Sequence record: PZ379180.1
DNA from: a phage
DNA length: 44,016 bases
Strand: one strand, 5' to 3'
Below, piece after piece: positions 1-43,471 of this stretch. Every line of letters starts with the position of its first letter. Positions within the stretch are counted from its first letter, which is position 1. Below the pieces are notes generated by a model that searched no databases, was not told where the DNA came from, and saw nothing but the letters and a program-made list of their open reading frames with translations. Position numbers and translations under genes: made by a program.

Positions 1-87
1 TTAGAAAAGGCGTTATCTGTGGTACAGGAGCATCGTCGTGAATTGATTAACCGCTTCAACCTGAACAAAGGTGACACCAATGCCTAA
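1..87 (+). CDS. hypothetical protein, 3' end only (ORF enters from left edge)
   Basis: Open frame from base 1 to TAA 85-87; in frame with the ORF cut at the right edge if ends are joined. Confidence 0.3.
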   Translation, partial: LEKALSVVQEHRRELINRFNLNKGDTNA

Positions 88-364
88 AATCACAATCGCG
101 TCACTTGAGCGTCGTATTCTGGTCCTTGAGTCAGAGAAACAGACGTTAGGCGGGCAACTGTCAATTAACGGTGAGTTTCAACTGGAGGCGTTCCGTATAC
201 TCCTCGGCGTTATGAAGCAGGAACCCAGCGCATACGCGGGAGTGTTCCTTGACGAGGAAGGTTCGCAGACACTAAGTTACTACGCTACCGAAGAAGAATT
301 AGCGTTCGACGGCTCCCGCGGTATCTATCCCGCTGTTCGAAAACTGGATGGTGTACGACTATGA
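80..364 (+). CDS. hypothetical protein
   Basis: ORF track 71..364; ATG at 80 preceded by AAAGGTG. Confidence 0.5.
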   Translation: MPKITIASLERRILVLESEKQTLGGQLSINGEFQLEAFRILLGVMKQEPSAYAGVFLDEEGSQTLSYYATEEELAFDGSRGIYPAVRKLDGVRL

Positions 365-546
365 CTAAAGCGCCTGAACCAGTAGTTATCGATGGCGTCC
401 TGTGGAAGCCATACTCGGTTTACCACATCGACGCCGACGGGAAGAAGTTTAGCTTCTACATTTTTGCAATTAGCCGTGAGCACGCCGCTTGTGTGGTTGA
501 CGATATTCGAGAAACGGCGTGGCTTGGTGATGAGATAGCGGGGTGA
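361..546 (+). CDS. hypothetical protein
   Basis: 61 aa ORF, ATGA start-stop overlap with upstream gene. Confidence 0.45.
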   Translation: MTKAPEPVVIDGVLWKPYSVYHIDADGKKFSFYIFAISREHAACVVDDIRETAWLGDEIAG

Positions 547-1945: not shown

Positions 1946-3206
1946 TATCACGGCAACGGAGCCGCAAGGCGCGTTTCTCGGTATGCATTGCAAGTTTCCG
2001 GCATTCGTAGCTGGCTTCGGTACGGGTAAATCCGAAGTTATGTGCAACTCTGCACTACTCGACAGCATGGAAGGTGGTAGCGATTCTATCATCGCCATGT
2101 ATGAGCCGACCTATGACCTGGTGCGCCTCATCCTTGCACCGCGTATGGAAGAAAAGCTCACCGACTGGGGTATCCGGTACAAATACAACAAGTCTGACAA
2201 CATAATCTATACGTCTTCCGGACAATTTGGGGATTTTGTTCTGCGTACACTTGATAATCCAGCAAGAATCGTTGGCTACGAATCGTTTCGTGCGAAAATC
2301 GACGAGTTGGACACCCTTAACATGGAGCACGCCGAGCACGCGTGGAACAAAGTCATCGCCCGTAACCGCCAGTTGCCGCGGACATATAAACCTATTACAC
2401 CGAAACCTGCTAATACCGTTTCCGTGTTCACTACTCCGGAAGGATTCCGTTTCGTACATGACCGCTGGGTAGTCAAAAAGAATCCAGGCTACGAGATGAT
2501 TCAGGCGTCCACCCTGTCTAACCCGTTCCTGCCAGAAGATTATGTGCAGTCGTTACGCGACACATACCCAGGTCAGTTGATTGACGCCTACATCGACGGC
2601 AAGTTCGTAAACCTCACGTCCGGAACGGTATACTATGCTTACGACCGCAGGAAAAACAGCAGTCGCGAAACAATCAATCCTGGCGAGACTCTGTATATTG
2701 GGCAGGACTTTAACGTAGGTCACATGGCGAGCACGGTTTACGTGCAACGCGGTAAGGTCTGGCACGCTGTTGCCGAGTTGGTTGATATGTTCGATACGCC
2801 TGACGTAGTGCGGGCCATAACTGAGCGATGGAAAAGTAAGGGCCACTATATCGTTATGTACCCGGACGCCAGCGGCAAAAACCGTAAAAGCAACAACGCC
2901 AGCACATCTGATATCGCCCAGTTACAGCAGGCCGGCTTCGAAGTGCGCGCTAAATCGACAAACCCACCGGTTAAAGACCGCGTAGCGGCGATGAATAAGG
3001 CGCTTGAATCTGGTATGGTCATGATTAATGAACAGGCTTGCCCTGTTACCGCACGATGCCTGGAGCAACAGGCTTACGACAAGAACGGCGAACCGGATAA
3101 ATCAGGCGGTGTGGACCACCAGAATGATGGAACCACATACCCTATCGCGTATGAAATGCCGATTCGCAAACCAGTTATTAACGTCCCGGTGACTTTCGCA
3201 CTTTAA
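1935..3206 (+). CDS. terL: terminase large subunit
   Basis: Walker A GFGTGKS near N-terminus, C-terminal acidic nuclease-like residues (IGQDFN, YPDASG); GTG start with AAGGTGGTG RBS. Confidence 0.9.
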   Translation: MNVNITATEPQGAFLGMHCKFPAFVAGFGTGKSEVMCNSALLDSMEGGSDSIIAMYEPTYDLVRLILAPRMEEKLTDWGIRYKYNKSDNIIYTSSGQFGDFVLRTLDNPARIVGYESFRAKIDELDTLNMEHAEHAWNKVIARNRQLPRTYKPITPKPANTVSVFTTPEGFRFVHDRWVVKKNPGYEMIQASTLSNPFLPEDYVQSLRDTYPGQLIDAYIDGKFVNLTSGTVYYAYDRRKNSSRETINPGETLYIGQDFNVGHMASTVYVQRGKVWHAVAELVDMFDTPDVVRAITERWKSKGHYIVMYPDASGKNRKSNNASTSDIAQLQQAGFEVRAKSTNPPVKDRVAAMNKALESGMVMINEQACPVTARCLEQQAYDKNGEPDKSGGVDHQNDGTTYPIAYEMPIRKPVINVPVTFAL

Positions 3207-3218
3207 GAGGATTATTCA

Positions 3219-4046
3219 ATGTTAACTATGAACGGTCAGAATCAGGGTGTTAAGACAAAACACCGGGAATGGCTGCATCACTTCGATAAATGGCAGAAGG
3301 TACGCCACGCTCTTGAAGGCGACCTTATCCGCTATCTGCGTAACGTCGGGAAGAACGAGCCTGACCAGACCTACGCAGCACAGCGACAGGAAGAATACGA
3401 GAACGGCGCTATCTGCTACAATTTCACCAAACGCACGCTGGCGGGGATGACGGGGTCAGTGATGCGCAAAGACCCTGAGCAGATTATCCCGCCTGAACTT
3501 GAGTACCTGTTGCACAACGCGGACGGTTCAGGTGTCGGGCTGTGGCAGCACGCGCAGGATACGCTGATGGAGATTAACTCGATAGGCCGTGGCGGGTTGC
3601 TGGTGGACGCCCCGGAAACAGCCGCAGCAACGGCGGCAGAGCAGAACGCGGGATTATTAAACCCGGTAATCGCATTCTATACCGCGGAGAACATTATCAA
3701 CTGGAGACTCACCCGCATCGGTTCAGTGAACCGCGTGACGATGGTTGTATTGCGTGAGGCATGGGAATACTCGGAACCAGGCGCTGAGTTTGAAACAAAA
3801 TTCGGCGAGCAATACCGCGTCCTTGACCTGATTGACGGTCGCTACCGCCAGCGCATCTACCGCTTCGATGCCGAAGGTGGCGCACAGGATGAAGTAATCG
3901 AAATCTTCCCGGAACTCGGCGAACAGTTGCGCGGTAAAATCCCGTTCACGTTCATTGGCGCAAGCAACAACGACGCCACTATAGACGATGCGCCTTTACT
4001 GCCGTTAGCTGAGCTAAATATAGGACACTTCAGAAATTCGTACTGA
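3219..4046 (+). CDS. portal protein, N-terminal fragment (frame break near 4030-4046)
   Basis: Position after terL; 275 aa ORF ends at TGA 4044-4046 and the next frame continues from 4024. Confidence 0.7.
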   Translation: MLTMNGQNQGVKTKHREWLHHFDKWQKVRHALEGDLIRYLRNVGKNEPDQTYAAQRQEEYENGAICYNFTKRTLAGMTGSVMRKDPEQIIPPELEYLLHNADGSGVGLWQHAQDTLMEINSIGRGGLLVDAPETAAATAAEQNAGLLNPVIAFYTAENIINWRLTRIGSVNRVTMVVLREAWEYSEPGAEFETKFGEQYRVLDLIDGRYRQRIYRFDAEGGAQDEVIEIFPELGEQLRGKIPFTFIGASNNDATIDDAPLLPLAELNIGHFRNSY

Positions 4047-4047
4047 T

Positions 4048-4701
4048 GTGGAAGAGGCCAGCTTTATAGTAGGTCAACCGACACTGTTCATTGCCCCCGG
4101 CGAGAACATGAGCATGGAGCAGTGGAAAGAAGCCAACCCACACGGCATACGCATGGGGTCGCGTTCAGGCCACAACATCGGCTCCGGCGGAAATGCGTTT
4201 CTGGTTCAGGCGGCGGAAACTAACCTCGCCAAACAGAACATGCTGGATAAAGAGAATCAGGCCATCCAGATTGGCGCGCAGCTTATCACCCCGACGCAGC
4301 AAATCACCGCGGAATCGGCCCGCCTGCAACGCGGCGCCGACACGTCAGTCATGGCAACAATAGCACGTAATGTAAGCATGGCGTATACCGATGCGTTGCG
4401 CTGGGTTGCGGGTATGCTTGGGCTTAGTGAAGATACTGAGATTGAGTTCAAGCTGAATATGGAATTCTTCCTGCAACCGATGACCGCTCAGGACCGCGCT
4501 CAGTGGATGGCGGATATTAACGCTGGCCTGCTACCCGCCACCGCTTACTATGCTGCGTTGCGCAAGGCAGGTGTGACTGACTGGACAGATGAGGACATTC
4601 AGAACGCTATTGAAGACGCACCTCTGCCGTTGGGTTCTGTTGCTCAGGTAGCGGGAGAGATTCCGCAGTCGGCGCAGCAACAGGACACCACTCAGCAGTA
4701 A
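4048..4701 (+). CDS. portal protein, C-terminal fragment
   Basis: 217 aa ORF in +1 frame starting 1 nt after the upstream stop; frame open from 4024. Confidence 0.65.
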   Translation: MEEASFIVGQPTLFIAPGENMSMEQWKEANPHGIRMGSRSGHNIGSGGNAFLVQAAETNLAKQNMLDKENQAIQIGAQLITPTQQITAESARLQRGADTSVMATIARNVSMAYTDALRWVAGMLGLSEDTEIEFKLNMEFFLQPMTAQDRAQWMADINAGLLPATAYYAALRKAGVTDWTDEDIQNAIEDAPLPLGSVAQVAGEIPQSAQQQDTTQQ

Positions 4702-4737: not shown

Positions 4738-5814
4738 ATGCTATTAACTTTAGCGCCACAGGGTTTATCTATGAGCTTACTTACATCCCTAATCAGCCAT
4801 CAGATATGGCTGCAACGCACCGCATCCGGTGAAGTGAAAGACCTCACGCCGTTCATTCAGGAGATAAGGGATGAAATCAAACGGCAGGTGCTGTTATTCG
4901 GTGACGACGGTCGCAGCACTGCGCGACTGAATAAACTGTTACGCGACCTGGAAGAAGCACTAACCGGTATTACGGGTGACTGGCAAACAAAGCTAACAGA
5001 CGACCTTAAGGAACTGGCGGCGTACGAGGCTGAGTGGAACGTAAAGACACTGACCGCCAACGTAGACGCGGAATTTGTTACGCCTACCGCTGAGCAGGTA
5101 TGGGCCGCTGCCGAGTTTCAACCATTATCATTGAGCGACAAGCCCGTTGATTTCACCAAGCTGATGTCTGGATGGGGCGAAACGGAAGTAGCACGTCTTG
5201 TAACTGGAGTTAAGATGGGCTTTGTGCAAGGTCAAACCACACGGCAGATTGTTAAGAATGTTGTTGGCGCTGGTGGACTAGCCGACATCTCAGAACGTAA
5301 CGCGACTACGGTAATCCGCACCGCGCTGTCCCACGTATCCAACGAGGCCCGTAACGAGACGTACCGCCAGAACGACGACATCATCGAGAAATATGAGTGG
5401 GTGTCAACTTTGGACAGCCGTACCAGCACGATTTGCAGGGCCAGAGACGGAATGACGTGGGAAATCGGTAAAGGTCCGATGCCACCAGCCCATCCTAATT
5501 GCCGAAGTACCACTGCACCGGTAATCAGTTCAGAGTTCGACTTCCTTGATAAAGGCGCAAAACGCGCGGCTAAAGGCGCGGAAGGTGGCACTCAGGTAAG
5601 CGCAGACACCACTTACTACGAGTTCCTTAAACAACAACCGGCGTGGTTTCAGGACCAGGCGCTCGGCCCGGTGCGAGGTAAGATTTTCCGTAACAGCGGT
5701 ATATCGCCGGAAGAGTTTCGCGTAATATCTGTAGATGGTTTCGGGAATCCGCTCACGCTTAAGCAGATGGCGGAACTCGATAAACGTGTTGCTGATTATC
5801 TGAAAGGGGAATAA
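4738..5814 (+). CDS. head morphogenesis protein (Mu gpF / SPP1 gp7-like)
   Basis: 358 aa, position after portal, composition typical of minor head proteins. Confidence 0.65.
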   Translation: MLLTLAPQGLSMSLLTSLISHQIWLQRTASGEVKDLTPFIQEIRDEIKRQVLLFGDDGRSTARLNKLLRDLEEALTGITGDWQTKLTDDLKELAAYEAEWNVKTLTANVDAEFVTPTAEQVWAAAEFQPLSLSDKPVDFTKLMSGWGETEVARLVTGVKMGFVQGQTTRQIVKNVVGAGGLADISERNATTVIRTALSHVSNEARNETYRQNDDIIEKYEWVSTLDSRTSTICRARDGMTWEIGKGPMPPAHPNCRSTTAPVISSEFDFLDKGAKRAAKGAEGGTQVSADTTYYEFLKQQPAWFQDQALGPVRGKIFRNSGISPEEFRVISVDGFGNPLTLKQMAELDKRVADYLKGE

Positions 5815-8227: not shown

Positions 8228-8336
8228 CGATGCTGACGAGGATTTGGCTATAGACGTTCAGAACGCCGAATGCGTGCGGCAACTGCGTCTGAAAGTATTC
8301 CAGTTGCAGGATTATGTGAGGAATATTCTGGAATAG
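8073..8336 (+). CDS. o-spanin (Rz1-like lipoprotein)
   Basis: Lipobox LTLSAC after signal peptide, Pro-rich mature part, starts inside i-spanin gene in another frame; GTG start with AGAGGTGA RBS. Confidence 0.6.
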   Translation: MKSLSTLKRLVAAGALLTLSACSSSPAPSQTLIPLPDTTMMQPPCKLAAPSSDADEDLAIDVQNAECVRQLRLKVFQLQDYVRNILE

Positions 8337-8418: not shown

Positions 8419-9120
8419 ATGAATCGTTTTTTACGTTATCCGTTCCAGGAAAAAGCTGGGGCAGAAGATAAAGCTGGTGGCGGTGACGCGCCGAAAATGT
8501 TCACCGCTGAAGAAGTTCAGGCGCTGATTGAGAAAGAAGTTGCCGGGCTTAAGGCTAATCAGGAAGCATTGTTGGCGGAGAAGAAAGAAGCCGCTCGCAA
8601 AGCAAAAGAGGCCGAAGAAGAACGGCAGCGCGCGCACCAGGAGGCGTTAAAAGCCGCTGGTAAGATGGATGAGTTCGAAAAGACGATTCGTAGCCAGTAT
8701 GACCCGGTGTTAGCCGAGAAAGACGGTCGCATCTCCAGAATGGCAGAGCGTATCCTCGGCAGCGAACGTAAAGCGGTGCTAGGCTCTTTCGCGGGTGACT
8801 TTATTACCCCAGAAGCAGTGGACATTCTTGCGCCGTTCGTTAAGACTGAGTTCGAAGGCGATGATGTGGTTACTAAGTTTGTTGGTGCAGACGGTAACGT
8901 AATCACGACTGACCCGGAACAGTTCCGCAAATACCTGCGCGAACACAAGGCGTTTTCGCATTTGATCAAAGCAAATGCAGCTTCCGGCGGCGGGGCTTCC
9001 GGTAGCAAAGGCGGCGGGGCCGCACCAGCGTTTAAAGACATGAGTGAAGCAGAGCGTTTAGCCCTGTATAAATCGAACCCTGCCGAATTTGAACGGCAAC
9101 TTAAAGCCCTGAGGAAATAA
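8419..9120 (+). CDS. scaffolding protein
   Basis: Coiled-coil rich (QEALLAEKKEAARKAKEAEEERQ), directly upstream of major capsid gene; ATG 8419 with AGGGGA RBS (track ORF starts 8365). Confidence 0.6.
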   Translation: MNRFLRYPFQEKAGAEDKAGGGDAPKMFTAEEVQALIEKEVAGLKANQEALLAEKKEAARKAKEAEEERQRAHQEALKAAGKMDEFEKTIRSQYDPVLAEKDGRISRMAERILGSERKAVLGSFAGDFITPEAVDILAPFVKTEFEGDDVVTKFVGADGNVITTDPEQFRKYLREHKAFSHLIKANAASGGGASGSKGGGAAPAFKDMSEAERLALYKSNPAEFERQLKALRK

Positions 9121-11628: not shown

Positions 11629-12243
11629 ATGGCGAAGACTAAATCAGAGATATTCACGCTAATCGGTTCCGAGCTACCGGACAACACGACCGGACTTATT
11701 ACGCCTGCGAAGTTGCGCGGGGTATTAACCCAGATGGCTGACTCACCTATTTACGCCACTCCGGGTGTTAAAGAGGTTGAAGTTCTCCGTGCCGCGTCTA
11801 CGGTAACCCAAGCGCCTACCGCGGTAGATACGGCATTGCAGTTAACTTTCGGTGCAGCTCAGGGTAGTGCATCCGACCCGGTAATGATTAATGCTGCGGG
11901 GCTGGTTACATTCAACACCGCCGGTAACTACGCCGTTCGCATCAAGTTACAGGCAGGCCGCACAGGTGCCAGCGGAACGTCAATCCTGCTATCACGTATT
12001 TTAGTAAACGGCGCTCAGTACGGCTCACCTGCCGCCACGAAACTGGTAAGCGCGGACACCACAATCCCGATTGAATCTCGCGTTGTTATTAACCCAACAG
12101 CAGGCCAGACGTTTGCCGTTCAGATTATGCGGGATAGCGTCGGAACTAACTTCGGTGGTGTATACCCGCAAGCGGCTACCGTAACCGCATGGGGTACAGC
12201 CCCGTCCGCGTTGCTGGTTATTTCGAGACTGGAGGCCGCCTGA
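11629..12243 (+). CDS. hypothetical structural protein
   Basis: 204 aa ORF, tightly packed in structural operon. Confidence 0.4.
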   Translation: MAKTKSEIFTLIGSELPDNTTGLITPAKLRGVLTQMADSPIYATPGVKEVEVLRAASTVTQAPTAVDTALQLTFGAAQGSASDPVMINAAGLVTFNTAGNYAVRIKLQAGRTGASGTSILLSRILVNGAQYGSPAATKLVSADTTIPIESRVVINPTAGQTFAVQIMRDSVGTNFGGVYPQAATVTAWGTAPSALLVISRLEAA

Positions 12244-12470
12244 TGAGCACCGCTTTCAGTAAACGTATGCAAGGCGTGGGTACACGCCTGCTAACCAAAT
12301 TCGGCAGCACGGTATCTCTGGTTCGTGCTGGCTCGAAAGTGTGGGATGAAGTTCTCGGTGAGTACGTCTGGTCTGCGGATGAAGTGTTGCCGTTGAAAGC
12401 GGTTCCGGTTCCGGTTAATGCTGGACTGGTAAACGGTTCGACGATTCAGGCGTACCGACATGATTGTTAA
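12243..12470 (+). CDS. head-tail adaptor, N-terminal fragment
   Basis: ATG 12243 (ATGA overlap); frame breaks near 12440-12467. Confidence 0.45.
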   Translation: MSTAFSKRMQGVGTRLLTKFGSTVSLVRAGSKVWDEVLGEYVWSADEVLPLKAVPVPVNAGLVNGSTIQAYRHDC

Positions 12471-12603
12471 AGCCGATTACAGCGTCGTTCCGAAGATGGG
12501 AGACAAGGTTCAGTTTAGCGGCGCGCAATGGTCTATCGTAGCTATCGAGACGAAGATGGTTAACGATGATGTCGTGGCATATTTTATTCAGGTGAGAAAA
12601 TGA
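12460..12603 (+). CDS. head-tail adaptor, C-terminal fragment
   Basis: +1 frame ORF, KMGDKVQFSGAQWSIVAIE resembles the C-terminal motif of head-tail adaptors. Confidence 0.4.
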   Translation: MIVKADYSVVPKMGDKVQFSGAQWSIVAIETKMVNDDVVAYFIQVRK

Positions 12604-15160: not shown

Positions 15161-15648
15161 TATTTATCGCTCCCGTGTGGTTTTAAGTGTGTAGAGTTCC
15201 CGTTACAGTCGTATTCGGTAACTGCGTGTGCGGTTATGCCGAGGTCACGGAAATGCTTTATTACCGCTGGAGAGTCGTCGAACGCACACAAGATTCTTTC
15301 CAGTCCGAAAGCACGCAACACCTCTTCTTTAATTACGATGTCTTTTCTGTTGTCGTGTTTGCTGCGCATGATTAGCGTGTCAAACCTAACGTTATTCTCT
15401 CGTAACCATTCGCGAGTCTCCTCCTCAGCGTCATCACTTCGCCCGGTAAGGATAATTATAGTAAGTCCGGAATGCCACAGTACGCTACACAAATGGATAT
15501 TGTCGTATATCGGAGCGTCATCTTTGCAGGCCATGTTAAATGGCTTCCACGCCCACGTTTCTCCGTAGTTATCTTTTGGTAACAGGTGTAAGCGATGGGT
15601 ACCGTCTACCAATGTCCCGTCTAAATCGAAAATTACAATATCTTTCAT
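15160..15648 (-). CDS. HAD-family phosphatase
   Basis: N-terminal FDLDGTLVD motif (DxDGT); start overlaps upstream gene stop. Confidence 0.6.
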   Translation of the reverse strand: MKDIVIFDLDGTLVDGTHRLHLLPKDNYGETWAWKPFNMACKDDAPIYDNIHLCSVLWHSGLTIIILTGRSDDAEEETREWLRENNVRFDTLIMRSKHDNRKDIVIKEEVLRAFGLERILCAFDDSPAVIKHFRDLGITAHAVTEYDCNGNSTHLKPHGSDK

Positions 15649-17600: not shown

Positions 17601-17748
17601 ACGCGTTGCTCCAGTTCGCCCGTTGGAACTTCATAACCCGCCACAAACGGCGGGAATTTGACAGTATCGCCGATGGGCATAAAGCCGCGCTAATTGCTAT
17701 GGGGGTTATGCAAGACGCGCCGGATGCAACGCAGGCCGCTGGGCCGGA

Positions 17749-17964
17749 ATGCCCCCTGAGCTACTAACCACATTTGAGAAGTACAGGGAAATTAAATTCA
17801 CCCGCCGAGTGGACGACGACGGCATCAAGATGTACCCGCGCGAGCAATTACGATGGTCAGATTTAGTGGCGTACAGCACCGTTTCAGGCCAGAATATAGG
17901 GATGTTCGAATCCGACATCATCATGAGCTTAGACGCTATTTTCGAGGGTAGAAACGATGGCTGA
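17749..17964 (+). CDS. hypothetical protein, possibly distal part of chaperone frameshift extension
   Basis: 71 aa ORF overlapping tape measure start; frame open from 17683. Confidence 0.3.
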   Translation: MPPELLTTFEKYREIKFTRRVDDDGIKMYPREQLRWSDLVAYSTVSGQNIGMFESDIIMSLDAIFEGRNDG

Positions 17965-19036
17965 TGTAGCTAGTTTAGTAGTAAAAGTAACAGAGCAAGG
18001 CGCGAAAGCCACATCAGACCGTCTTGACAACCTTTCAAAGTCCGCAAAAGTAGCGGGGGCCGCCGTAGCAGGCCTTGCTTCTATCGTAGCGGCTACCGCG
18101 TATAAAGCTGCCCAAGAACTGGTTGACTCACAGCGGCAACTGGACAAGATGTCCGCCAGTTTGAAGACCTTAACAGGAAGTACCCAAGGTGCTAAACAGG
18201 CGCTAAGTATCCTGCAAGATTTTGCCCGCGATACCCCATACGGACTGGAGCAGGCGGTGGAAGGCTTCCGTAAGCTGGTGGCCCTTGGCCTTACCCCATC
18301 CGAGGAGGCGTTGCGGTCCTACGGCAATACCGCATCGGCTATGGGCAAGGACCTTAATCAGATGATTGAGGCGGTAGCCGACGCCAGTACGTTTGAGTTC
18401 GAACGCCTAAAAGAATTCGGCATCAAAGCCAAGCAGAACAAAAACGACGTAGAGTTTACATTCCAGGGGACAACAACCGTAGTTAAGAAAAGCGCTGCCG
18501 ATATTGAGCAGTATTTACTTAATATTGGTAACGTAAATTTTGCCGGTGCCATGGCGGACCAGGCCAACACCCTTAATGGCGCTATCGCGAGCGCCAGTGA
18601 CTCATGGTCGCAGCTAAAAATGACGCTTGCCACCAGTCTTGATGTTGGCGCACTTGCGGAACCTATCAGGTATATCAATGACTTGATCCAGGAATTAAAT
18701 GCGTCTGTTGCTTCCGGTGAATTAGCCGCTGAAATGCAGATGTGGGGGAACATCGCGTCGGAAGTAGGAAGCGCTATCGAGATGTCATTCGACGCTGCGT
18801 TTGGCTTTGTTGGCGATGCCATCAACGGGCTTAATGAACTGTGGGATTTCAGCAGCAAGAGTATTACGGATAGCGGAGAACAAACGGCTACTACCATCGC
18901 TGAATCCACCGCCGATGCGCTTGACTTCATCGCGGAAGAGTTCACCGCGATGGAGAGATTCTTTGAAGATATGGTTAAAGGCGCGCAGGACGCGGGCCGT
19001 CTTGTACGAGCCGCTTTTACCCCAGGGAATCAGTAG
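17957..19036 (+). CDS. tape measure protein, fragment 1
   Basis: Ala/Gln-rich helical 359 aa ORF after chaperone; frame breaks between 18979 and 19036. Confidence 0.75.
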   Translation: MADVASLVVKVTEQGAKATSDRLDNLSKSAKVAGAAVAGLASIVAATAYKAAQELVDSQRQLDKMSASLKTLTGSTQGAKQALSILQDFARDTPYGLEQAVEGFRKLVALGLTPSEEALRSYGNTASAMGKDLNQMIEAVADASTFEFERLKEFGIKAKQNKNDVEFTFQGTTTVVKKSAADIEQYLLNIGNVNFAGAMADQANTLNGAIASASDSWSQLKMTLATSLDVGALAEPIRYINDLIQELNASVASGELAAEMQMWGNIASEVGSAIEMSFDAAFGFVGDAINGLNELWDFSSKSITDSGEQTATTIAESTADALDFIAEEFTAMERFFEDMVKGAQDAGRLVRAAFTPGNQ

Positions 19037-19074
19037 ACGTAGCTAAAAATATCAACTTCCAGCTTGGCCTGGCT

Positions 19075-19371
19075 TTGGATACCCAGCGCGATGTCGCCGA
19101 CGTTACGCGTAAAAGTTTCCGCGAACAGGTAGAAGCTCAACAGGATATTGTAGCGTTAAAACGCGCGGCGTATGACATCGATAAGGAGTCCGCAAAAGCT
19201 GAGGGGTTAAACAAATTTAAGGTAACCGGAACTGGCGGCGGTTCTGACGATGACGGGTCAGCCGCAAAAGCTGCTAAGAAAGCGGCGGACGCGTTCGAGC
19301 GCCAGAAAAAGCGGCGGAAGACTTCTACTATCAGTCAATCCATCTTAATGATGACGTATTTCAGAAAATAG
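19075..19371 (+). CDS. tape measure protein, fragment 2
   Basis: -1 frame open from 18979 to 19371; breaks at A5 run 19306-19310. Confidence 0.6.
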   Translation: MDTQRDVADVTRKSFREQVEAQQDIVALKRAAYDIDKESAKAEGLNKFKVTGTGGGSDDDGSAAKAAKKAADAFERQKKRRKTSTISQSILMMTYFRK

Positions 19372-19400
19372 AAGCTAACCAGGAAGAGCAACTGTCTAAG

Positions 19401-20294
19401 TTGCAGGATTTTTATAGCAATAAGCTTCTTAGCGACCAACAGTACGAAAACGCCAAGACGCAGATTATGCTCTCTGCCGAACAGGCCCGCCAGGAAGAAC
19501 TGGACAAGAAAAGGAAAGAAGCCCAGGAGAAGCAGCAGAAAGGTGATGATTTCATGGCTCAGATTATGGGCCAGAACGCCACCGAGCTTGAGCTTCTGGA
19601 TATTCAGGAACAGCAGAAACTGGCGGTAGCCGATAAGTACCAGGAACAAGGTCTGATTAGCGAGAAGCAGTATCAGGCCGCGCTTAACGCCATCAACGAG
19701 CAGTACGCAACCAAGCGTGCCGACGCAACGGCAACAGCTTTCGGTAACATGGCTTCAAACATCGGGTCTGCGTTGGGCGAGGCTTCTGGTGCGTACAAGG
19801 CATTCGCTATCGTACAGGCCACTATAGCCACGTACACCGCAGCTATCGAGGCGTACAAGTCAACGGCTGCTATCCCTGTAGTCGGTCCGTTCCTGGCCCC
19901 AGTAGCCGCTGCTGCTGCTGTTGGGGCCGGTATGGCGCAGATTTCCGCTATCAGGTCAGCACGTGAACAGGGTGGACAGTTATCCGCCGGGCAGGCTTCC
20001 ACCATCGCCGAACGCGGTAAACCTGAGGTAATTATGCCGGCGGGGGCGTCGCGAGTACGCACCGCGCAACAAATGAAAGAGATTATGGGCCAAAACGGGT
20101 CTTCTTCCGGCCCATCTAATGTTACTATCGTAAACAACACGAGTTCGCAAATCGGCAACGTATCCACCGAGCAGGATGATGAAGGCCGTCTGCGTATCAT
20201 CATAGAAGAGCAAGTTGCTGCATCTTTGCAGAACAGCAACAGTAAGATTAGCAAGGCCCGCAAGGCCACAAGAAACGCGCCGGGGTTTAAATAA
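19401..20294 (+). CDS. tape measure protein, fragment 3
   Basis: Frame open from 19278; Q/E-rich coiled coil and hydrophobic AAIPVVGPFLAPVAAAAAVGAG segment. Confidence 0.7.
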   Translation: MQDFYSNKLLSDQQYENAKTQIMLSAEQARQEELDKKRKEAQEKQQKGDDFMAQIMGQNATELELLDIQEQQKLAVADKYQEQGLISEKQYQAALNAINEQYATKRADATATAFGNMASNIGSALGEASGAYKAFAIVQATIATYTAAIEAYKSTAAIPVVGPFLAPVAAAAAVGAGMAQISAIRSAREQGGQLSAGQASTIAERGKPEVIMPAGASRVRTAQQMKEIMGQNGSSSGPSNVTIVNNTSSQIGNVSTEQDDEGRLRIIIEEQVAASLQNSNSKISKARKATRNAPGFK

Positions 20295-20794
20295 TGAGCG
20301 ACTTATACTTTCCACGTAGCCTTAAGCCGGTGGTATCAAAAGGCTACTCAATGACCAGACGTAACAACGTCTGGAGTGTAGATTTAGCGGGCGGCGGGGT
20401 GCGTCAGGGGCGCGACACGTATTACGACGTGTTCCCGATAAGCGTAACTCTGATTACATCGGCATTGGGGCGGCAGGCGTTTCTGTCGTTCCTAGAAAAA
20501 GTAGACGGCGGTGCGTCAAGTTTCTGGATGGCGCACGACTTCGGCATGGGTATTGAGGATTACCAGGTAACCATTACGTCCACTATCGCCGAGTCCACCG
20601 AAGACGGGATTAACTGGACGATTACTTTCACGGCAACCGCCGAGAAATCGCCGTTCCAGGACCTTGAGAACCAGTGCCTTGTTAACAATCTGCCGGATTT
20701 GTATGGTTGTTATGGTGACGGGTTGGGGTGTTTCCTTAAAGCCTACGGAACCGCACAATCAACGTTTCCACGAATTTGGGAACCGATGCAATGA
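20294..20794 (+). CDS. minor tail protein (M-like)
   Basis: 166 aa ORF directly after tape measure, ATGA overlap. Confidence 0.55.
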   Translation: MSDLYFPRSLKPVVSKGYSMTRRNNVWSVDLAGGGVRQGRDTYYDVFPISVTLITSALGRQAFLSFLEKVDGGASSFWMAHDFGMGIEDYQVTITSTIAESTEDGINWTITFTATAEKSPFQDLENQCLVNNLPDLYGCYGDGLGCFLKAYGTAQSTFPRIWEPMQ

Positions 20795-27052: not shown

Positions 27053-28473
27053 TTCTTACCTCGTCTCTTCATGTAATTAAGCAACTCTTCCTGTACCGAT
27101 TTCTTCTCGTCAGTACGTGTGGCAACAACCTCGTCCAGCGTGTCTTTAGCGACGATGTGATAGAGGAACACCGGTCGCTCGTGCCCCGCTTGTTTCTGGC
27201 GGACCGGGCCTATACGCTCAACAACCTGCAAATAGTGCTCAAGGTTCCAGCCTTGCGAGATGAACGCCAGATGATGACCCCCGTCCTGTAAATTCAAACC
27301 ATGCCCGGCTGACGCAGGATGCACGCATAAAATCTCGATTTCCCCACGGTTCCACGCTTCCATCTGCTTGTTACCCTTAGCCCCTTTGGCGAATGCCTGG
27401 GCCTGCGGGAATCGCTTAAGGATGCGCTCCAGTTCGTGCTTGAACTGATAAGCCACCAGCAACGGCGCGCCCTGTAACTCCTCGACAATAGACTCCAGCG
27501 CATCCAGTTTCGTGTCGTGCACTTTCTCCCATTCTTTGGTTGCTTCGCCGTCTTCGCCCGTCACATACACGGCACCGGATGCAATCTGCAAGCACTTTGA
27601 GGTCTTCGCCGCAGCGTTAGCCGCTTCAACTTCCCCGCTCTCCAGTTCTGCGAATAACTTCTCCTCCATATCTATGTACGCCTGACGTGCTTTCTTCGGC
27701 AGGTCGATTTCAACCGGCACGATAACAGGCGCTTCACAACCGAACCACTCGGCGGCGTCAATCGTCAGACTGATGTCCTTCATCTTCTGGTGAATCTCGT
27801 TATCTGCACCAGGGCGGGCGTGATATTCACGTGCCATCGCAGATTTTCCTTTCTGTACCGAATTAAACCAGCGGTCGGTGAATGCTGTATACGACGAACC
27901 TAGGCGCTCGCCAGCGTCGATAAACCAGTTCTGGCCCCACAAATCCTTGAGGCCGTTTGGTGACGGTGTACCAGTCAGGTTAATAAAACGCTTAACCCTT
28001 CCGAAAGCCACTTTACTAAGCGCCTTTGCACGCTTGCTACCACCTGAACGGCTGCGGAATGATTTAAGCTTCGTGCTTTCATCTGCAACGATAACCGTAA
28101 AAGGCCAGTCGTCTTTGCCGTAGTAGTCAATCAGCCACTCGATAACCTCATAGTTCGTGCAAACCACGTTAGCATCTGACTCCAGCGCCGCGATGCGGCG
28201 CTTCTCTGAACCAGTCGCATCTACAACACGCAGACATGGGAATTGCCATTTCTCTTGCTCTGCAGGCCACGTACCAGACGCAACCCGCAGCGGGGCGAGG
28301 ATTAACACGCGGTCGTCATCATTAAGTTGGTAGTTTCGGAACAGTCGGTTTAATGCCCACAGTACGCTGCCAGTCTTCCCAGCGCCCATGCTTGCCCATA
28401 TGTTGCAGCGATGGTGCCGCAGCATGAACGAAGTCATGAGCTTTTGGTACTCACGCCTTTGAAACTTACTCAT
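27049..28473 (-). CDS. SNF2-family DNA helicase
   Basis: Walker A GAGKTG, DEST box (VIVADESTKLKS), LTGTP, C-terminal helicase motifs. Confidence 0.85.
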   Translation of the reverse strand: MSKFQRREYQKLMTSFMLRHHRCNIWASMGAGKTGSVLWALNRLFRNYQLNDDDRVLILAPLRVASGTWPAEQEKWQFPCLRVVDATGSEKRRIAALESDANVVCTNYEVIEWLIDYYGKDDWPFTVIVADESTKLKSFRSRSGGSKRAKALSKVAFGRVKRFINLTGTPSPNGLKDLWGQNWFIDAGERLGSSYTAFTDRWFNSVQKGKSAMAREYHARPGADNEIHQKMKDISLTIDAAEWFGCEAPVIVPVEIDLPKKARQAYIDMEEKLFAELESGEVEAANAAAKTSKCLQIASGAVYVTGEDGEATKEWEKVHDTKLDALESIVEELQGAPLLVAYQFKHELERILKRFPQAQAFAKGAKGNKQMEAWNRGEIEILCVHPASAGHGLNLQDGGHHLAFISQGWNLEHYLQVVERIGPVRQKQAGHERPVFLYHIVAKDTLDEVVATRTDEKKSVQEELLNYMKRRGKK

Positions 28474-29395
28474 TTACCGCCCCCATGAATGCCTTTATAA
28501 ATTCAGCAGCTACTTGCGGGACGATGGCATTGCCGTAACCGCGCAATCGTCCCACTCTGGCGGGTATCCCATCAGCCAGCGGGAATGTGCCGGGTTCAAC
28601 TGGCCTGAATTTTCCATCCCGGCATCCGAGCCAGTCTGCCTCTGACCAGAAGCCGTGATGCGGATTGGTCGCGATATTTTCAGTCCCTGCTCCGTTGAGT
28701 AGTCCAGCCTGTCGAAAGTCCGGTCCTTTCCGTCCTTGCGAATCACTGTCTCTCCGCTCCCTCTGTAATCGTTCGCGGTCGGCGTCGCCCATGCCGTCAT
28801 CGCGGCGGCCCACCCCAGTTTGTTCGGTTTCGTCCTGCCGTCTGTGCTGCGCATGTTCACGTCGTTTGTTATCAGTGATACTGCTGGCGTGGGCCAATCT
28901 ATGCGCGCCGAAGAAAAGTCGGTCGCGTTTGTGCGGTGCGCCGACGCTACAAGCTGGGAGTACGGCAAACCCGACGGCGTAGTTTTCTCCTTCCAGGTGA
29001 GTTTGTAAATCGCACATCCACGATTTTGCAATTGCTGGCGCAACCTGCTCCCCAAAGAGGACTGGAGGGCGGCACTCGCTGATGAGGTCGAGGAACACAG
29101 GTGCGAGGTGTCTCGGGTCGAACTGTCCGAGTTGCTTTCCCGCTGCGCTAAACGGTTGGCAAGGCGGGCTTCCCGTCCAGAGAGGCGCATCTTCCGGAAC
29201 TCCCGCAAGTCTGAGCGCGAGAGGCCAGCCGCCGATACCAGCGAAAAAATGACACTGGGTGAATCCGTCGAGGTCTTCTGGCTTAACTTCAGTAATGCTT
29301 CTTTCATCTACAACTCCAAAAGGTATGTGACCCTGTTTTATTAATTCACGCAGCCACGCGGCTGCGCCTTTATCCCATTCGTTGTAATAGTTCAT
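28466..29395 (-). CDS. DNA C5-cytosine methyltransferase (central third apparently out of frame)
   Basis: Motif I FAGIGGW, motif IV GSPPCQPFSAAG, motif VIII APHKRDRLFFGA, motif X GNAIVPQV in this frame; TRD and motif IX lie in overlapping frame 28510..29307. Confidence 0.75.
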   Translation of the reverse strand: MNYYNEWDKGAAAWLRELIKQGHIPFGVVDERSITEVKPEDLDGFTQCHFFAGIGGWPLALRLAGVPEDAPLWTGSPPCQPFSAAGKQLGQFDPRHLAPVFLDLISECRPPVLFGEQVAPAIAKSWMCDLQTHLEGENYAVGFAVLPACSVGAPHKRDRLFFGAHRLAHASSITDNKRREHAQHRRQDETEQTGVGRRDDGMGDADRERLQRERRDSDSQGRKGPDFRQAGLLNGAGTENIATNPHHGFWSEADWLGCRDGKFRPVEPGTFPLADGIPARVGRLRGYGNAIVPQVAAEFIKAFMGAVNE

Positions 29396-29982: not shown

Positions 29983-30114
29983 TCATTCCAGCACCCACAG
30001 ATAAATTGTTACTAACATACCTAATACGGCAACCATCATGCCGTATTGACCCTCGTGACAGTAGACACCGGCGGCGAATCCCGCCAGTACCGCAATAATC
30101 AGTTTACTTGGCAT
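29983..30114 (-). CDS. small membrane peptide (43 aa)
   Basis: Hydrophobic ORF MPSKLIIAVLAGFAAGVY..., below track cutoff. Confidence 0.25.
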   Translation of the reverse strand: MPSKLIIAVLAGFAAGVYCHEGQYGMMVAVLGMLVTIYLWVLE

Positions 30115-31492
30115 ATCGCTTCATCTCCGCACCTTCAGCTACAAGAGGGAACCCCTCCGCCCATTCCGGCAATTCGCACATCAACCGCTCAAGCTCTGCT
30201 ACATTGTATTCCGGTGAATCTGGTGTCTCGCAGATAATCTCATCGTGTACGTGAAGTACAATCGGGTAGCCGTTTGCTTCTACGTTCAGCAGGGCATTAG
30301 CCAGCAAATCACGGCACAATGCCTGAGTGCAGTTTTCCACCAGTTTACCCGAGTAGGTGTACTGGAACCCCCACTGACGGGTTAGCTGATTTTCGCCCTG
30401 GTACTTAATGCGCACGTTAGTAGACACCTTCCCGTCTCCATCTGTTTCTTTCGACACGCTCAACCCGACGCCCGGATAAGACATAACGCGACCCGACGGC
30501 AACGTCATGCGCAACCACCAACCAGCGACTTTGTTGCCGTTGTTGTCCGTTTCTACGTTACGCGAAAACTTAACACCCCGCGGTCCCGCAGTGAACTCTT
30601 TACCTGGATTGCGGATAGCCGCCATAGCCGCGTCTTCAATATCACGCCAGAAAGCTACTGTTTCCGGGTGTGACTCACGCCACATGCGCTTGATAGCGTC
30701 GCAGGTACGCCACACTTTCTTATCAAGAATATACGATGGTCGGTCATCCTTTTCACCTGGCCGCGGAGGTCGCTTGGCTTCCTGAATACGTGCCCATTCA
30801 TAGCCGCGTGCAGTAGCGGCCCATATATGGTTGGGGAATGTCCCGTCCATTGTTTTTGCCATATCAACCAGGTTTAAGCCGAGGTTCTTAGCAAACTGAA
30901 CGAAAGCACCGACACCACCAGCATAGCCAAGGCCCAATTCACATGCTTTACCTATCTGGCGTAGGTCACTACGGCTTTCGAGAATGTAATCAGGGTCCAT
31001 GCCGAACATCTTACCCGCGGTTACACAGTAAATATCCAATCCCGCACGGAAGGTATCGAGAGCGGTTTCTTCTCCCGCCAGCCATGCCAACCCGCGACCT
31101 TCAACGTTAGAGTAATCAGCTACGACAAACTTACGCCCGGCTTCCGGTATGATGCAGCTACGCACCGTCGATGCCGTTAGCTTGGCTACATCGAAACGGC
31201 GATGCGCGCGGCCTTTAAACAACAGGTCGATTCCGTAGGACAATGGGTGTGTTACCCTCCACCAGTCCTTCTCTGACATCCAGTCATAACGTACTTTCTT
31301 CTTTTTATTCTTCGGGTCGTCATGATAGTACCCGCGCGCCAGGTTCTGTGGCTGGAAGCCTTTACCCGCGAACCGTAACGTACGCTTTGCCCCACCGTAC
31401 TGGATACAACCGCGGCGTCGGTCGTCCGACGAGCGGCCTAACAGCAGCGGGTTATATTTCGTGGACGCTGTTGACGCGGCCCCGAGGCGCAT
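30104..31492 (-). CDS. DNA polymerase family A, polymerase-domain fragment
   Basis: Motif A VADYSNVEGRGLAWLAG, motif B RQIGKACELGLGYAGG, motif C LHVHDEIICE. Confidence 0.85.
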   Translation of the reverse strand: MRLGAASTASTKYNPLLLGRSSDDRRRGCIQYGGAKRTLRFAGKGFQPQNLARGYYHDDPKNKKKKVRYDWMSEKDWWRVTHPLSYGIDLLFKGRAHRRFDVAKLTASTVRSCIIPEAGRKFVVADYSNVEGRGLAWLAGEETALDTFRAGLDIYCVTAGKMFGMDPDYILESRSDLRQIGKACELGLGYAGGVGAFVQFAKNLGLNLVDMAKTMDGTFPNHIWAATARGYEWARIQEAKRPPRPGEKDDRPSYILDKKVWRTCDAIKRMWRESHPETVAFWRDIEDAAMAAIRNPGKEFTAGPRGVKFSRNVETDNNGNKVAGWWLRMTLPSGRVMSYPGVGLSVSKETDGDGKVSTNVRIKYQGENQLTRQWGFQYTYSGKLVENCTQALCRDLLANALLNVEANGYPIVLHVHDEIICETPDSPEYNVAELERLMCELPEWAEGFPLVAEGAEMKRYAK

Positions 31493-32370
31493 TTCGATAA
31501 TCGTGCGGGCGTCGTCAGGTAAATCATCATCGGTACCAGCAGGTCATTCAGCGTCGACTTCTGTGCGTTGTGTATGCGGTGTGCGGGGGCCAGTTCACGT
31601 AGAATAGGCAGAAAGTCCTTACCGGTAAGCGAGCCGCCGTATTTACGTTGAGCTTCTTCCTGTAACTGTGCCTTGTGCTTCTCTACGGCTTCAATCGCGG
31701 CTTCCGCCAGTGCGACGTCAACCTTAAATCCGCGGTCGTTGATTAACTGGTCAAGTTCCAGTACACGGTCTTCGAACTCGGAGTTACCCCAACGCGGCAG
31801 CTTATGGAAGACTTCACGCATCGCAGTGATGTCGCTCACGGCGTACCTGATGAACATCGCCCACTCGTCAGGGTGAGTTTCTGCGGTGTAGCGGCGGATT
31901 TTGTAGTTCTTCGGCGTCGGTTTAGAGAAACGCTTAATCAGAGCCTTGCCGCGTTTATCTTTCGCGTTGTCTGCAGACACGCCCAGCACTTCGCACAGCG
32001 CATCAAGAGAACCCGGCAGCGCGTGACGGAACGCCCAAATCATAGTATCAATGGTGTTACTTACCGGAATATCAAAGCCCCAGCAGTGTTTCATGATTAG
32101 GCGATCGAAAAGTCCACCGTTGTGCCATACCATCTTAATGCGACTGTTTGGCTTAACCAGACGGCGTAGAGCGCGGTGTAAATCCACGGGCATATCACTG
32201 CCGTCGGTGCAATCCCATACCTGTACAGGCTCGTCGTCAAAAGCGTAGGTACAGATAAGCACTTCGGTAGTTGGATGCTCGGCGTAAGCATAGGAGCCGA
32301 CTTTCTTCAAATCGGCTTCGGAGAATGTTTCAAAGTCTAAGTAAAGCAATGTGTTCATAGTCTGTACCAC
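31438..32370 (-). CDS. DNA polymerase family A, 3'-5' exonuclease-domain fragment
   Basis: Exo I motif LYLDFETFS; ORF overlaps the polymerase fragment by 55 nt in another frame. Confidence 0.8.
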   Translation of the reverse strand: MVQTMNTLLYLDFETFSEADLKKVGSYAYAEHPTTEVLICTYAFDDEPVQVWDCTDGSDMPVDLHRALRRLVKPNSRIKMVWHNGGLFDRLIMKHCWGFDIPVSNTIDTMIWAFRHALPGSLDALCEVLGVSADNAKDKRGKALIKRFSKPTPKNYKIRRYTAETHPDEWAMFIRYAVSDITAMREVFHKLPRWGNSEFEDRVLELDQLINDRGFKVDVALAEAAIEAVEKHKAQLQEEAQRKYGGSLTGKDFLPILRELAPAHRIHNAQKSTLNDLLVPMMIYLTTPARLSKCASGPRQQRPRNITRCC

Positions 32371-33384: not shown

Positions 33385-33413
33385 ACTATAATAGCTAACT
33401 ATTCAGGTGTCAA
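33385..33413 (-). promoter_or_regulatory. promoter-like element with AATAG-N4-CTATT palindrome
   Basis: Minus strand TTGACA-17-TATAGT, palindrome 33390-33403 in spacer. Confidence 0.5.
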
Positions 33414-33447
33414 ATAAAATTTTGCAATAGGGATTATGTTCTCGAAA

Positions 33448-33603
33448 TTAAGCATATTGGTACGGTTCGAACTCATCCTCTACAGGGTAGTATCGCATCA
33501 TGGTACCGTTCAAGAACGTGAACGATTCCGAGTGTAGATACCCATCCCAGTGCCATACCATCAAAAAATCTTTATCAGTCGGCATTTCATTTACTTGAAT
33601 CAT
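33448..33603 (-). CDS. hypothetical protein
   Basis: ATG at 33603 with AGGAGG RBS (track ORF 33448..33633). Confidence 0.35.
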   Translation of the reverse strand: MIQVNEMPTDKDFLMVWHWDGYLHSESFTFLNGTMMRYYPVEDEFEPYQYA

Positions 33604-33920
33604 TCTAAATCCTCCTCTGTAACTTGATTCCACTCAGGACGTTTGTCATCCGCCGTTGCGACGCATGGCGCACCGGGCTTACGGGTAATGAAGTCTTTCA
33701 GTTCTTCTTCCGGTACAATTTTAACCGCTTCGGTCGGTGTCATAAGAACTACCTTTTGCAGCATAGTACCGTACTTCTCGAATACTGCATCGGTATCTTT
33801 CCACGCACGATTACCCGGGCGTCCTTCAACCAGTTTATACCCCGGCACTTTCTTACCGGAATGTAACGCAGCAGCCATAGCTTTCTCAACCTTGTCGATG
33901 TGCTGGCGCAACAACGGCAA
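33600..33920 (-). CDS. C-terminal part of Cas4-like nuclease (frame open up to about 34093)
   Basis: Same frame upstream encodes CQWCRFSEQC cysteine triad; C-terminus TEEDLE. Confidence 0.5.
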   Translation of the reverse strand: MPLLRQHIDKVEKAMAAALHSGKKVPGYKLVEGRPGNRAWKDTDAVFEKYGTMLQKVVLMTPTEAVKIVPEEELKDFITRKPGAPCVATADDKRPEWNQVTEEDLE

Positions 33921-34084
33921 CTTCTCATACTCAGCTACGAGTTGCTCTGGCGTAAGCTCAAGTGCAAAGTCGTCCTCCAGTTCTTCCGCCAGCCCCGCGT
34001 TAACGGTTTTTGTACGCGCTGCGCATTGTTCAGAGAACCGACACCACTGACAACCATCTACCGACGGCTTGAAGTCCGACGCTT

Positions 34085-34840
34085 TCAGGTTCTTTTACCC
34101 CGGAAATAGGCATCAAGAGCCAACAGCGCCCGTTTCTGTGCAAACTTAGCGAACAGTTCCAGACCTTCAACCGAGATGTCCCACTCCGATGCACCGCCAG
34201 CGTACGGCTGGAAGATGACCAGTCGAACGGTTGTTATGCTATAACGTCTCTTGAGTCGGCGATAAACGCCGAGAGCATAAAGCATAAGCTGCTTGTTTTC
34301 TTTCGCTTCGACACGATGCCGCCCGGTTTTCAGGTCGCAGATGATAAGCATGTGTTCGTCGGTGTTAGCCAGTTCCTGTATGGCAACAAGGTCAGCAGTT
34401 CCGAACGTCTCAACGCCTTCATACCCCGGATGCAATACCTCAGTAAGATTAACACGCATTTCCAGCTTGGCGTAAGTCGCTATATCGATAATCGCCTTGC
34501 AGTAGTCGGTGTACTTGCGCACCTGCTCAATCATGTCCGCCGTAATCAGTACCGCGCCTTTCATCGGGCTGATTAGTGCCTTAATCTGGCCTTTGCCTTC
34601 ATCCAGCACGTAAGCACCGACTTCACGCTCTAACGGCAGCGCAGTTCCGCGAATATAAGCGTTGAGATGGACCTCAGCTATGGTGTGCATTGCCGTGCCT
34701 AATACAGCGGCTTTACCTGACGTGTTAGGGGTATCTTTTTCACAGGCCAGTGATGCCGCGCAACTTAGCCACTTTTTAGCCCCTGACGGCGACAGTAAGG
34801 CATGTACATCGTTATTGCCGCCGCGTTCTTTAAGAATCAT
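34085..34840 (-). CDS. PD-(D/E)xK nuclease, Cas4/RecB-like (N-terminal part)
   Basis: ICDLKTG (D-x-K) and QLMLYALG (Q-x-x-x-Y) motifs; N-terminal Cys. Confidence 0.6.
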   Translation of the reverse strand: MILKERGGNNDVHALLSPSGAKKWLSCAASLACEKDTPNTSGKAAVLGTAMHTIAEVHLNAYIRGTALPLEREVGAYVLDEGKGQIKALISPMKGAVLITADMIEQVRKYTDYCKAIIDIATYAKLEMRVNLTEVLHPGYEGVETFGTADLVAIQELANTDEHMLIICDLKTGRHRVEAKENKQLMLYALGVYRRLKRRYSITTVRLVIFQPYAGGASEWDISVEGLELFAKFAQKRALLALDAYFRGKRT

Positions 34841-40196: not shown

Positions 40197-40413
40197 TGGA
40201 AGAATTAATTTGTATTGAATCCCGCCAGGATGTGCAGGATTGGTTTGTGAAAGGTAACAAATATTCGTCAGGAGTATATTACGACGGTACCGTCGATACG
40301 TTTTAGATGAAGACGGTGATGAATGGGATTTAGAGGACACTGCGGGCGAGACTTTAACCGTTAGTTTTCTTCAATGTTGTTTCCGCATCATTCACAACGG
40401 CATCGAATCATGA
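40196..40413 (+). pseudogene. hypothetical small gene with apparent frame break at T-run 40301-40304
   Basis: ATG 40196 frame stops at 40304-40306; -1 frame continues to TGA 40411-40413. Confidence 0.3.
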
Positions 40414-42644: not shown

Positions 42645-42909
42645 ATTATTCTGGTTCGGCGGTATGCTGGCAATCGGAGGCACATCGCTGTTTAATGTAT
42701 ATCACCCCAGCGTGGATGACGGATTATTTGGTAGTGTGCTTTATATCCTGACCGCTATTGTCTGCGCCGCAGGATGTATCCACCTGTTACAGGGCAGCAT
42801 GTCACCGACGCTGCCTGAGACATTAATCACATTAGTTGCGCTGCGTCAGATTCGTCAGGCGTGGCTGTCGTACGGAGGACATAAGCGTGTCTCGAAATAT
42901 TTCAGATAA
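42637..42909 (+). CDS. membrane protein (second holin/antiholin-like)
   Basis: 90 aa, two TM helices, GAGGAGG RBS, between holin and endolysin. Confidence 0.4.
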   Translation: MNELFWFGGMLAIGGTSLFNVYHPSVDDGLFGSVLYILTAIVCAAGCIHLLQGSMSPTLPETLITLVALRQIRQAWLSYGGHKRVSKYFR

Positions 42910-43439: not shown

Positions 43440-43471
43440 ATCCCAGCCCTGACCCAGCCGGGATTTTTTTA
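43440..43471 (+). terminator. possible intrinsic terminator
   Basis: Short hairpin ATCCC...GGGAT followed by TTTTTTT. Confidence 0.4.

Follow-up and report, generated by a model that had tools for sequence, protein, structure and literature searches.

The DNA polymerase locus

The sequence record PZ379180.1 is a Kagunavirus (Guernseyvirinae) coliphage genome of 44,016 nucleotides (nt), the whole of which is referred to below as the window. Its family A DNA polymerase is written on the minus strand as two overlapping open reading frames (ORFs), termed here ORF1 and ORF2 (Table 1). A first-pass annotation had placed the exonuclease domain, recognizable by the sequence LYLDFETFS, and the polymerase domain in two different frames that overlap by 55 nt (positions 31438-31492). 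This description is borne out by the ORF coordinates and by comparison with Pfam: ORF1 matches DNA_pol_A_exo1 (PF01612) with 25.2 bits (cut-off 23.6) and ORF2 matches DNA_pol_A (PF00476) with 57.7 bits (cut-off 34.3). LYLDFETFS, at the N-terminus of the polymerase, contains the Exo I DxE motif, and the repaired protein described below has polymerase motifs A (VVADYSNVEGR), B (RQIGKACELGLGYAGG) and C (LHVHDEI).

The frame change does not lie within the overlap: it is located 42 nt upstream, at a TA dinucleotide at 31534-31535. Alignment with the polymerases of related phages, a check proposed in the first-pass annotation, reveals one gap only. These two base pairs (bp) are the sole gap in the gene alignment with Escherichia phages BEU33 (99.9% identical), Golestan and phiEc4, and close relatives annotate the polymerase as a single 2253-nt coding sequence (CDS). 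The matching stretch is 2265 nt in every close relative and 2267 nt in the window; on the coding strand, the junction reads CTGGCCGATG in the relatives (the junction falling after CTGG) and CTGGTACCGATG in the window.

When 31534-31535 is deleted, one ORF of 750 amino acids (aa) results, of which 749/750 residues are identical to the Golestan polymerase. A tblastn search with the Golestan protein gives the same picture: residues 1-275 and 276-750 abut in two frames of the window with no residue lost, at 99.6% and 99.8% identity, respectively. Both domains are on one polypeptide in the relatives and after removal of the TA; the unedited sequence of the window places them on two. ORF1 ends in 32 residues (VPMMIYLTTPARLSKCASGPRQQRPRNITRCC) that are read out of frame up to a chance stop. 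ORF2 opens with the first ATG that follows the preceding stop in its frame, a codon for a Met inside the normal protein (..ARTIIEMRLGAAS.., ..DDARTIIEMRLGAAS..). The polymerase most probably begins at the ATG at 32358: relatives have their annotated start there, and it overlaps the upstream gene, which ends at 32355, as ATGA.

The allele with the insertion had no exact match in IMG/VR, a metagenome collection or a genome collection (0 in each); the allele lacking the TA was found. Neither ORF1 nor ORF2 had an exact match in a collection of 15 billion proteins, a weak result given that the queries carried the stop codon. Logan contig L010, in which the methylase is identical, offers no independent view of the junction, as it stops within the polymerase gene (it is approximately 92% identical elsewhere).

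Table 1. Features of the polymerase and methyltransferase loci and other altered sites in PZ379180.1
Feature	Coordinates	Strand	Description
ORF1	31438..32370	-	Exonuclease part plus 32 out-of-frame residues; 310 aa from GTG, N-terminus MVQTMNTLLYLDFETFS
ORF2	30104..31492	-	Polymerase part; 462 aa, starting at a Met codon internal to the normal protein
Family A DNA polymerase gene	30104..32358	-	3'-5' exonuclease and polymerase domains; single gene once 31534-31535 is removed
TA insertion (2 bp)	31534..31535		Causes the apparent split; dyad of YGGCCR site, CGGCCA in relatives to CGGTACCA in window, making GGTACC
C5-cytosine methyltransferase, alpha chain	28466..29395	-	309 aa; Pfam PF00145, NCBIfam dcm superfamily and M.HhaI matches
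Nested ORF, candidate beta chain	28510..29307	-	265 aa from first ATG; +1 frame, wholly inside methyltransferase gene
Small gene	80-365		Frameshift at 314; +1 insertion, not at homopolymer run
Portal	3219-4701	+	Split at ~4044; ORFs 3219-4046 and 4048-4701; site 4041..4046, CGGCCG in Bas73 to CGTACTG in window (+1)
CGGCCG to TAGCTA	11293		Substitution-type change
Neck / tail-completion gene	12189-12600	+	Frameshift at 12452; site 12449..12455, CGGCCG to CGTACCG (+1)
Tail assembly chaperone	17606-17961		Frameshift at 17751; C6 to C5
Tape measure gene	17957-20294; breaks 19018..19313	+	Breaks at 19024 and 19310; two 1-nt deletions, three ORFs
TGGCCG to TGGTAG	28328..28333		Also at 42729, and at 15606 on the other strand
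Small gene	33402-33603	-	3' end frameshifted at 33461; site 33458..33464, TGGCCG to TGGTACG (+1)
PD-(D/E)XK exonuclease	33600-34840		Frameshift at 34092; T5 to T4
69-aa ORF	site 40285..40292	+	Intact in BEU33, broken at 40288; CGGCCG to CGGTACCG (+TA)

Polymerase genes of related phages

The window is a mosaic that is identical to no record of the phage collection searched. A megablast search with the region returned 232 phage records, all from Kagunavirus, Jerseyvirus and allied Guernseyvirinae genera, with Escherichia phages BEU33 and BEU35 (99.9%), SCS44 (99.5%) and Golestan (99.0%) as the best matches. With the Golestan polymerase as a tblastn query, a homologue was found in 716 phage records, and in 698 of these, 80% or more of the protein is matched at a single place. 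Contiguity of the gene was judged in 60 records sampled down this ranking. The first-pass annotation had named a two-ORF layout with independent start signals in relatives as the finding that would speak against its reading; instead, in 60/60 sampled records the gene is either one contiguous tblastn piece or is interrupted by an in-frame intein, and no frameshift separates the exonuclease domain from the polymerase domain in any of them.

The Kagunavirus polymerases (VB_EcoS-Golestan E1_39 [ATS93263.1], BEU33 and phiEc4) share with the window both the length of 750 aa, once the TA is removed, and the ATGA start overlap. Their neighbours are also the same: a DUF2815 single-strand-binding-like protein, a VRR-NUC nuclease, a C5-methylase and a helicase. 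Relative to Golestan, the window polymerase differs only by the 2-bp insertion and by one residue (N509 vs D509). Polymerases of Salmonella phages of the genus Jerseyvirus, such as vB_SenS-Ent2 SEP2_gp37, are homologous at approximately 78% identity and are truly interrupted, appearing as two tblastn pieces. In contrast to the window, in which there is no inserted element but only a 2-nt shift of frame, the Jerseyvirus interruptions consist of in-frame inteins, approximately 900 nt long and excised by protein splicing. These genes span approximately 3090 nt and are annotated as 'intein-containing DNA polymerase precursor'. An intein is also present in the minor head protein of phage fEg-Eco06 (8894-10831 in L006); both the polymerase and the minor head protein (4738-5814, 358 aa) of the window are without one.

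Other frameshifted genes in the assembly

Comparison of the Golestan proteins with the window identifies further broken genes, including those for the portal, neck, tail assembly chaperone, tape measure and exonuclease proteins (Table 1). All of these genes are intact in relatives, and each indel is private to the window with otherwise identical flanks. The indels fall into two classes: one consists mostly of shortened homopolymers, and the other of TA-bringing changes located exactly on YGGCCR sites. The tape measure gene is interrupted twice, by a deletion at 19024 (CCCCCGGGG to CCCCAGGG) and another at 19310 (AAAAAGG to AAAAAG), and the homopolymer class also includes a shortening of T9 to T7 at 43463. 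A change at 8245 was considered as a further error but was rejected, a similar allele being present in other relatives. Because a lytic phage could not be viable if its genes for the portal, tape measure protein, polymerase and exonuclease were all broken, we take the indels to be, very probably, assembly errors. The assembly should be treated as having at least ten false frameshifts, and any tally of pseudogenes, split genes or novel small ORFs made from the window is unreliable.

TA-type changes occur at YGGCCR sites

Five frameshifting indels are exactly on YGGCCR sites and all of them bring in TA: those in the portal gene, at 12452, in the polymerase gene, at 33461 and at 40288. A further four YGGCCR sites (28328, 42729, 15606 and 11293) have substitution-type TA changes that preserve the frame. 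Across the assembly, the replacements seen are GGTACC, GGTAC, GTACC and GGTAG. At the polymerase site, CGGCCA is present in BEU33, BEU35, Golestan and fEg-Eco06 (4/4).

The number of intact YGGCCR sites is correspondingly low, with 5 in the window compared to 13-19 in eight relatives; when the nine TA-type sites are added to these five, the total of 14 is normal for the group. An unbiased 6-mer scan points to the same motif: CGGCCA (the same site as TGGCCG) is the 6-mer most often changed, in 26/35 cases (p = 1.6e-12). YGGCCR covers approximately 0.2% of the genome, and by our binomial estimate the chance of five of approximately 15 frameshifting indels being located there is approximately 1e-10. 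The +TA insertions sit at the dyad, such that the site remains palindromic (GGTACC). This symmetry fits a systematic misreading of both strands, and there is no reason for it under random mutation. GGTACC (KpnI) sites number 7 in the window and 3-4 in relatives, two of them (31532-31537 and 40286-40291) being made by the +TA changes.

The base substitutions are of a different nature. Codon changes private to the window comprise 271 synonymous and 52 non-synonymous cases, and this synonymous excess indicates that the substitutions are mostly real divergence, with the indel and TA changes forming a separate, anomalous class. Three other sequence contexts were considered and rejected as error sites. 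GGCC in general is not depleted (155 sites in the window vs 154-162 in relatives), nor is the Dcm site CCWGG. Changes of CCSGG to CCWGG, also prominent in the k-mer scan, were rejected because 9/11 are synonymous and so represent natural divergence.

Origin of the polymerase split

From these sequence comparisons, we are confident that the polymerase split is an artefact of sequencing or assembly. The phage very probably encodes an ordinary family A DNA polymerase in a single chain of approximately 750 aa, the TA being in the assembly but not in the phage DNA, and the true junction very probably reads CTGGCCGATG. The first-pass annotation had offered an indel artefact or, as the less likely option, a genuinely split polymerase: its ranking holds, as relatives have one gene, and the second option finds no support. 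TA-type motif errors together with shortened homopolymers make up the error profile of a long-read consensus from native DNA, and the technology was probably nanopore sequencing of such DNA. Taken as a polymerase finding this is ordinary, and its value is in quality control: the polymerase should be annotated as one gene.

If the TA were instead real, the polymerase would be a frameshifted pseudogene in a defective or minority genome. Sequencing errors most often take a form other than a 2-bp insertion outside a homopolymer, and private mutations are to be expected in a distinct mosaic genome that is no copy of any database record; both points speak for a real mutation. On this reading, however, the frameshifts of the neck, portal, exonuclease and chaperone genes, and both of those in the tape measure gene, would have to be real too, a load incompatible with a replicating lytic phage, and five indels hitting one 6-bp motif in the same TA-containing way are unlike random mutation. 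We therefore regard it as unlikely.

A genuinely split polymerase, with the exonuclease and polymerase made as two polypeptides from overlapping ORFs and working as a complex, is very improbable. Both ORFs are long and each has a complete Pfam domain, which speaks for such an arrangement, but the layout is seen in no relative (among the 716 homologue records, of which 60 were sampled for contiguity) and the gene is intact in BEU33 at 99.9% nucleotide identity. In addition, the internal Met codon at which ORF2 starts is not preceded by a Shine-Dalgarno sequence (GACGCCCGCACGATTATCGAAATG), there being no GGAG- or GAGG-like sequence in the 20 nt upstream, and the C-terminal 32 residues of ORF1 are read out of frame. 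Programmed ribosomal frameshifting (-1 or +2), which would join both frames into one polymerase and for which a short two-frame overlap is the usual geometry, can be practically discounted, as X XXY YYZ slippery heptamers are absent from the whole of ORF1 and the frame change is conserved in no relative, all of which read straight through. Nor do relatives have a conserved slippery site followed by a downstream structure. The lack of a frameshifted relative, a Shine-Dalgarno sequence and a slippery heptamer is the reason that we reject both of these mechanisms.

A C5-methyltransferase gene with a nested ORF

Near the polymerase gene, the window encodes a C5-cytosine methyltransferase (Table 1), the homologue of which is annotated as a C-specific methylase in relatives. 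The motifs FAGIGG, PPCQPFS, GEQV, HKRDR and GNAIVP are visible in this protein, here called the alpha chain. Its PF00145 match covers profile positions 60-182 only, and motifs I and X were recognized by eye. A second ORF, a candidate beta chain, is nested within this gene in another frame. Its homologues number 2244 in phage and prophage sequences and, among the 120 listed, range from 93% to 45% identity, most being on phage-sized contigs of approximately 44 kb.

At a distant locus (Logan contig L009), both frames are open and one is again nested in the other (2847-3812 and 2962-3777). The conservation is complementary: frame A is conserved there at the N- and C-terminus and poorly in the middle; in frame B it is the middle and the C-terminus that are conserved. 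Both frames are conserved over the last ~55 codons, as true dual coding would give.

This layout matches that of M.EcoHK31I of E. coli, a heterodimeric C5-methyltransferase that recognizes YGGCCR and methylates the inner C, and whose alpha gene contains the coding sequence of the beta chain in a second frame (PMC2836561). The alpha chain of that enzyme carries motifs I-VIII as well as X, together with the target-recognition domain, while the beta chain contributes motif IX (PMC2836561). The window shares with M.EcoHK31I a second chain wholly in the other frame within the alpha gene, and YGGCCR is the motif affected in the assembly. The two differ in that the window enzyme is carried by a phage and is an orphan, near which no restriction enzyme was seen. 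At 265 aa, the nested ORF is also longer than the M.EcoHK31I beta chain.

Searches of Pfam and of PDB sequences with the nested ORF gave nothing significant. When a profile of the nested ORF was compared by hhalign to M.HhaI, its residues 233-254, containing an LMGYP motif, aligned to motif IX (KTRKLHPRECARVMGYPDSYKV); the match was in the expected place but not significant (E = 0.13). EcoHK31I does not appear by name among the best 120 matches of either methyltransferase chain, and a search of E. coli genomes returned only prophage 'DNA cytosine methyltransferase' genes, which are uninformative with respect to specificity.

Annotators have chosen different frames of the methylase gene: the 930-nt frame in Golestan, an 813-nt 'putative methyltransferase' in phiEc4 and an 'Mte8-like protein' in K1ind1. 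A few proteins among the 120 listed (P0008, P0011 and P0071) fuse the methylase N-terminus (frame A) to sequence of the nested frame, with junctions that are all different. These could be either indel errors of assembly or natural single-chain fusions; M.EaeI is a single-chain equivalent.

Methylation as a possible cause of the miscalls

The errors at YGGCCR may have their origin in the methyltransferase itself. The phage would carry an EcoHK31I-type two-chain C5-methyltransferase; in the phage DNA, both strands of YGGCCR would have their inner cytosine methylated by this enzyme; and the methylated palindrome would then be misread symmetrically by the basecaller or at the consensus step. We consider this causal chain, from phage methylase through YGG(m5C)CR (m5C, 5-methylcytosine) to miscall, to be on balance probable. 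We also favour, though only slightly, the reading in which genuine methylation of the phage's own DNA at YGG(m5C)CR, carried out by a two-chain EcoHK31I-type enzyme that the phage encodes, shows through in the miscalls.

Modifications in native DNA are recognized to give rise to errors in nanopore basecalling and to false frameshifts in annotation (PMC11649196), and a bioRxiv preprint (10.64898/2026.01.14.699587) likewise treats native-DNA modification as a source of nanopore basecalling error. As in the window, modification-dependent errors affect one short palindromic motif together with homopolymers, giving rise to false frameshifts and extra CDSs amid natural-looking substitutions (PMC11649196). 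The published cases are mostly substitutions, whereas the window has a symmetric TA insertion at the GGCC dyad.

Several points weigh against the artefact reading and its proposed cause. Five YGGCCR sites (844, 10365, 24570, 30758 and 33370) are read normally, so that the error would have to depend on context or coverage. The losses of YGGCCR at 8724, 18885, 35474 and 38882 are synonymous C-to-T changes that resemble natural variation. The putative membership of the window enzyme in the EcoHK31I type is deduced from gene architecture and from the coincidence of the motif. We know of no published report of m5C in GGCC being called as GGTACC. Finally, an artefact is not provable from the sequence alone.

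The TA changes at YGGCCR could also be physically real, produced by a site-specific process or reflecting a bulky non-canonical modification, with proteins made from the interrupted genes by some unknown route. We judge this to be highly unlikely, and rank a read-out of self-methylation as much likelier.

The error pattern thus yields a by-product, in that it points to a YGGCCR methylation motif and to a methyltransferase with a conserved second protein nested in its gene, and this nested methyltransferase is of more interest than the polymerase. If self-methylation at YGGCCR is indeed responsible, the methylases of the Guernseyvirinae would gain a predicted specificity, and phage methylation motifs could be deduced from the motif-specific miscalls of flawed assemblies.

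Other features of the window

The tail-tip gene (20294-20794, annotated as 'tail tip protein M' in fEg-Eco06) encodes 166 aa in the window compared to 472 aa in Golestan. It is shorter because approximately 930 bp of the BEU33 and Golestan sequences are missing in the window, with the junction at ~20740-20791. Misassembly was considered as the source of this shortening and was rejected, since the same 166-aa ORF is found in an independent Logan contig (L010, ERR2001083). By sequence, the short ORF looks like a natural variant.

CCSGG occurs 76 times in the window and 94-109 times in relatives, a difference matched by gains of CCWGG. Most of these changes are synonymous, hence natural, and the shift may reflect the avoidance of restriction sites. 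GATC is very rare, with 8 sites in 44 kb compared to approximately 170 expected from the length, and relatives have 8-9 of the same sites.

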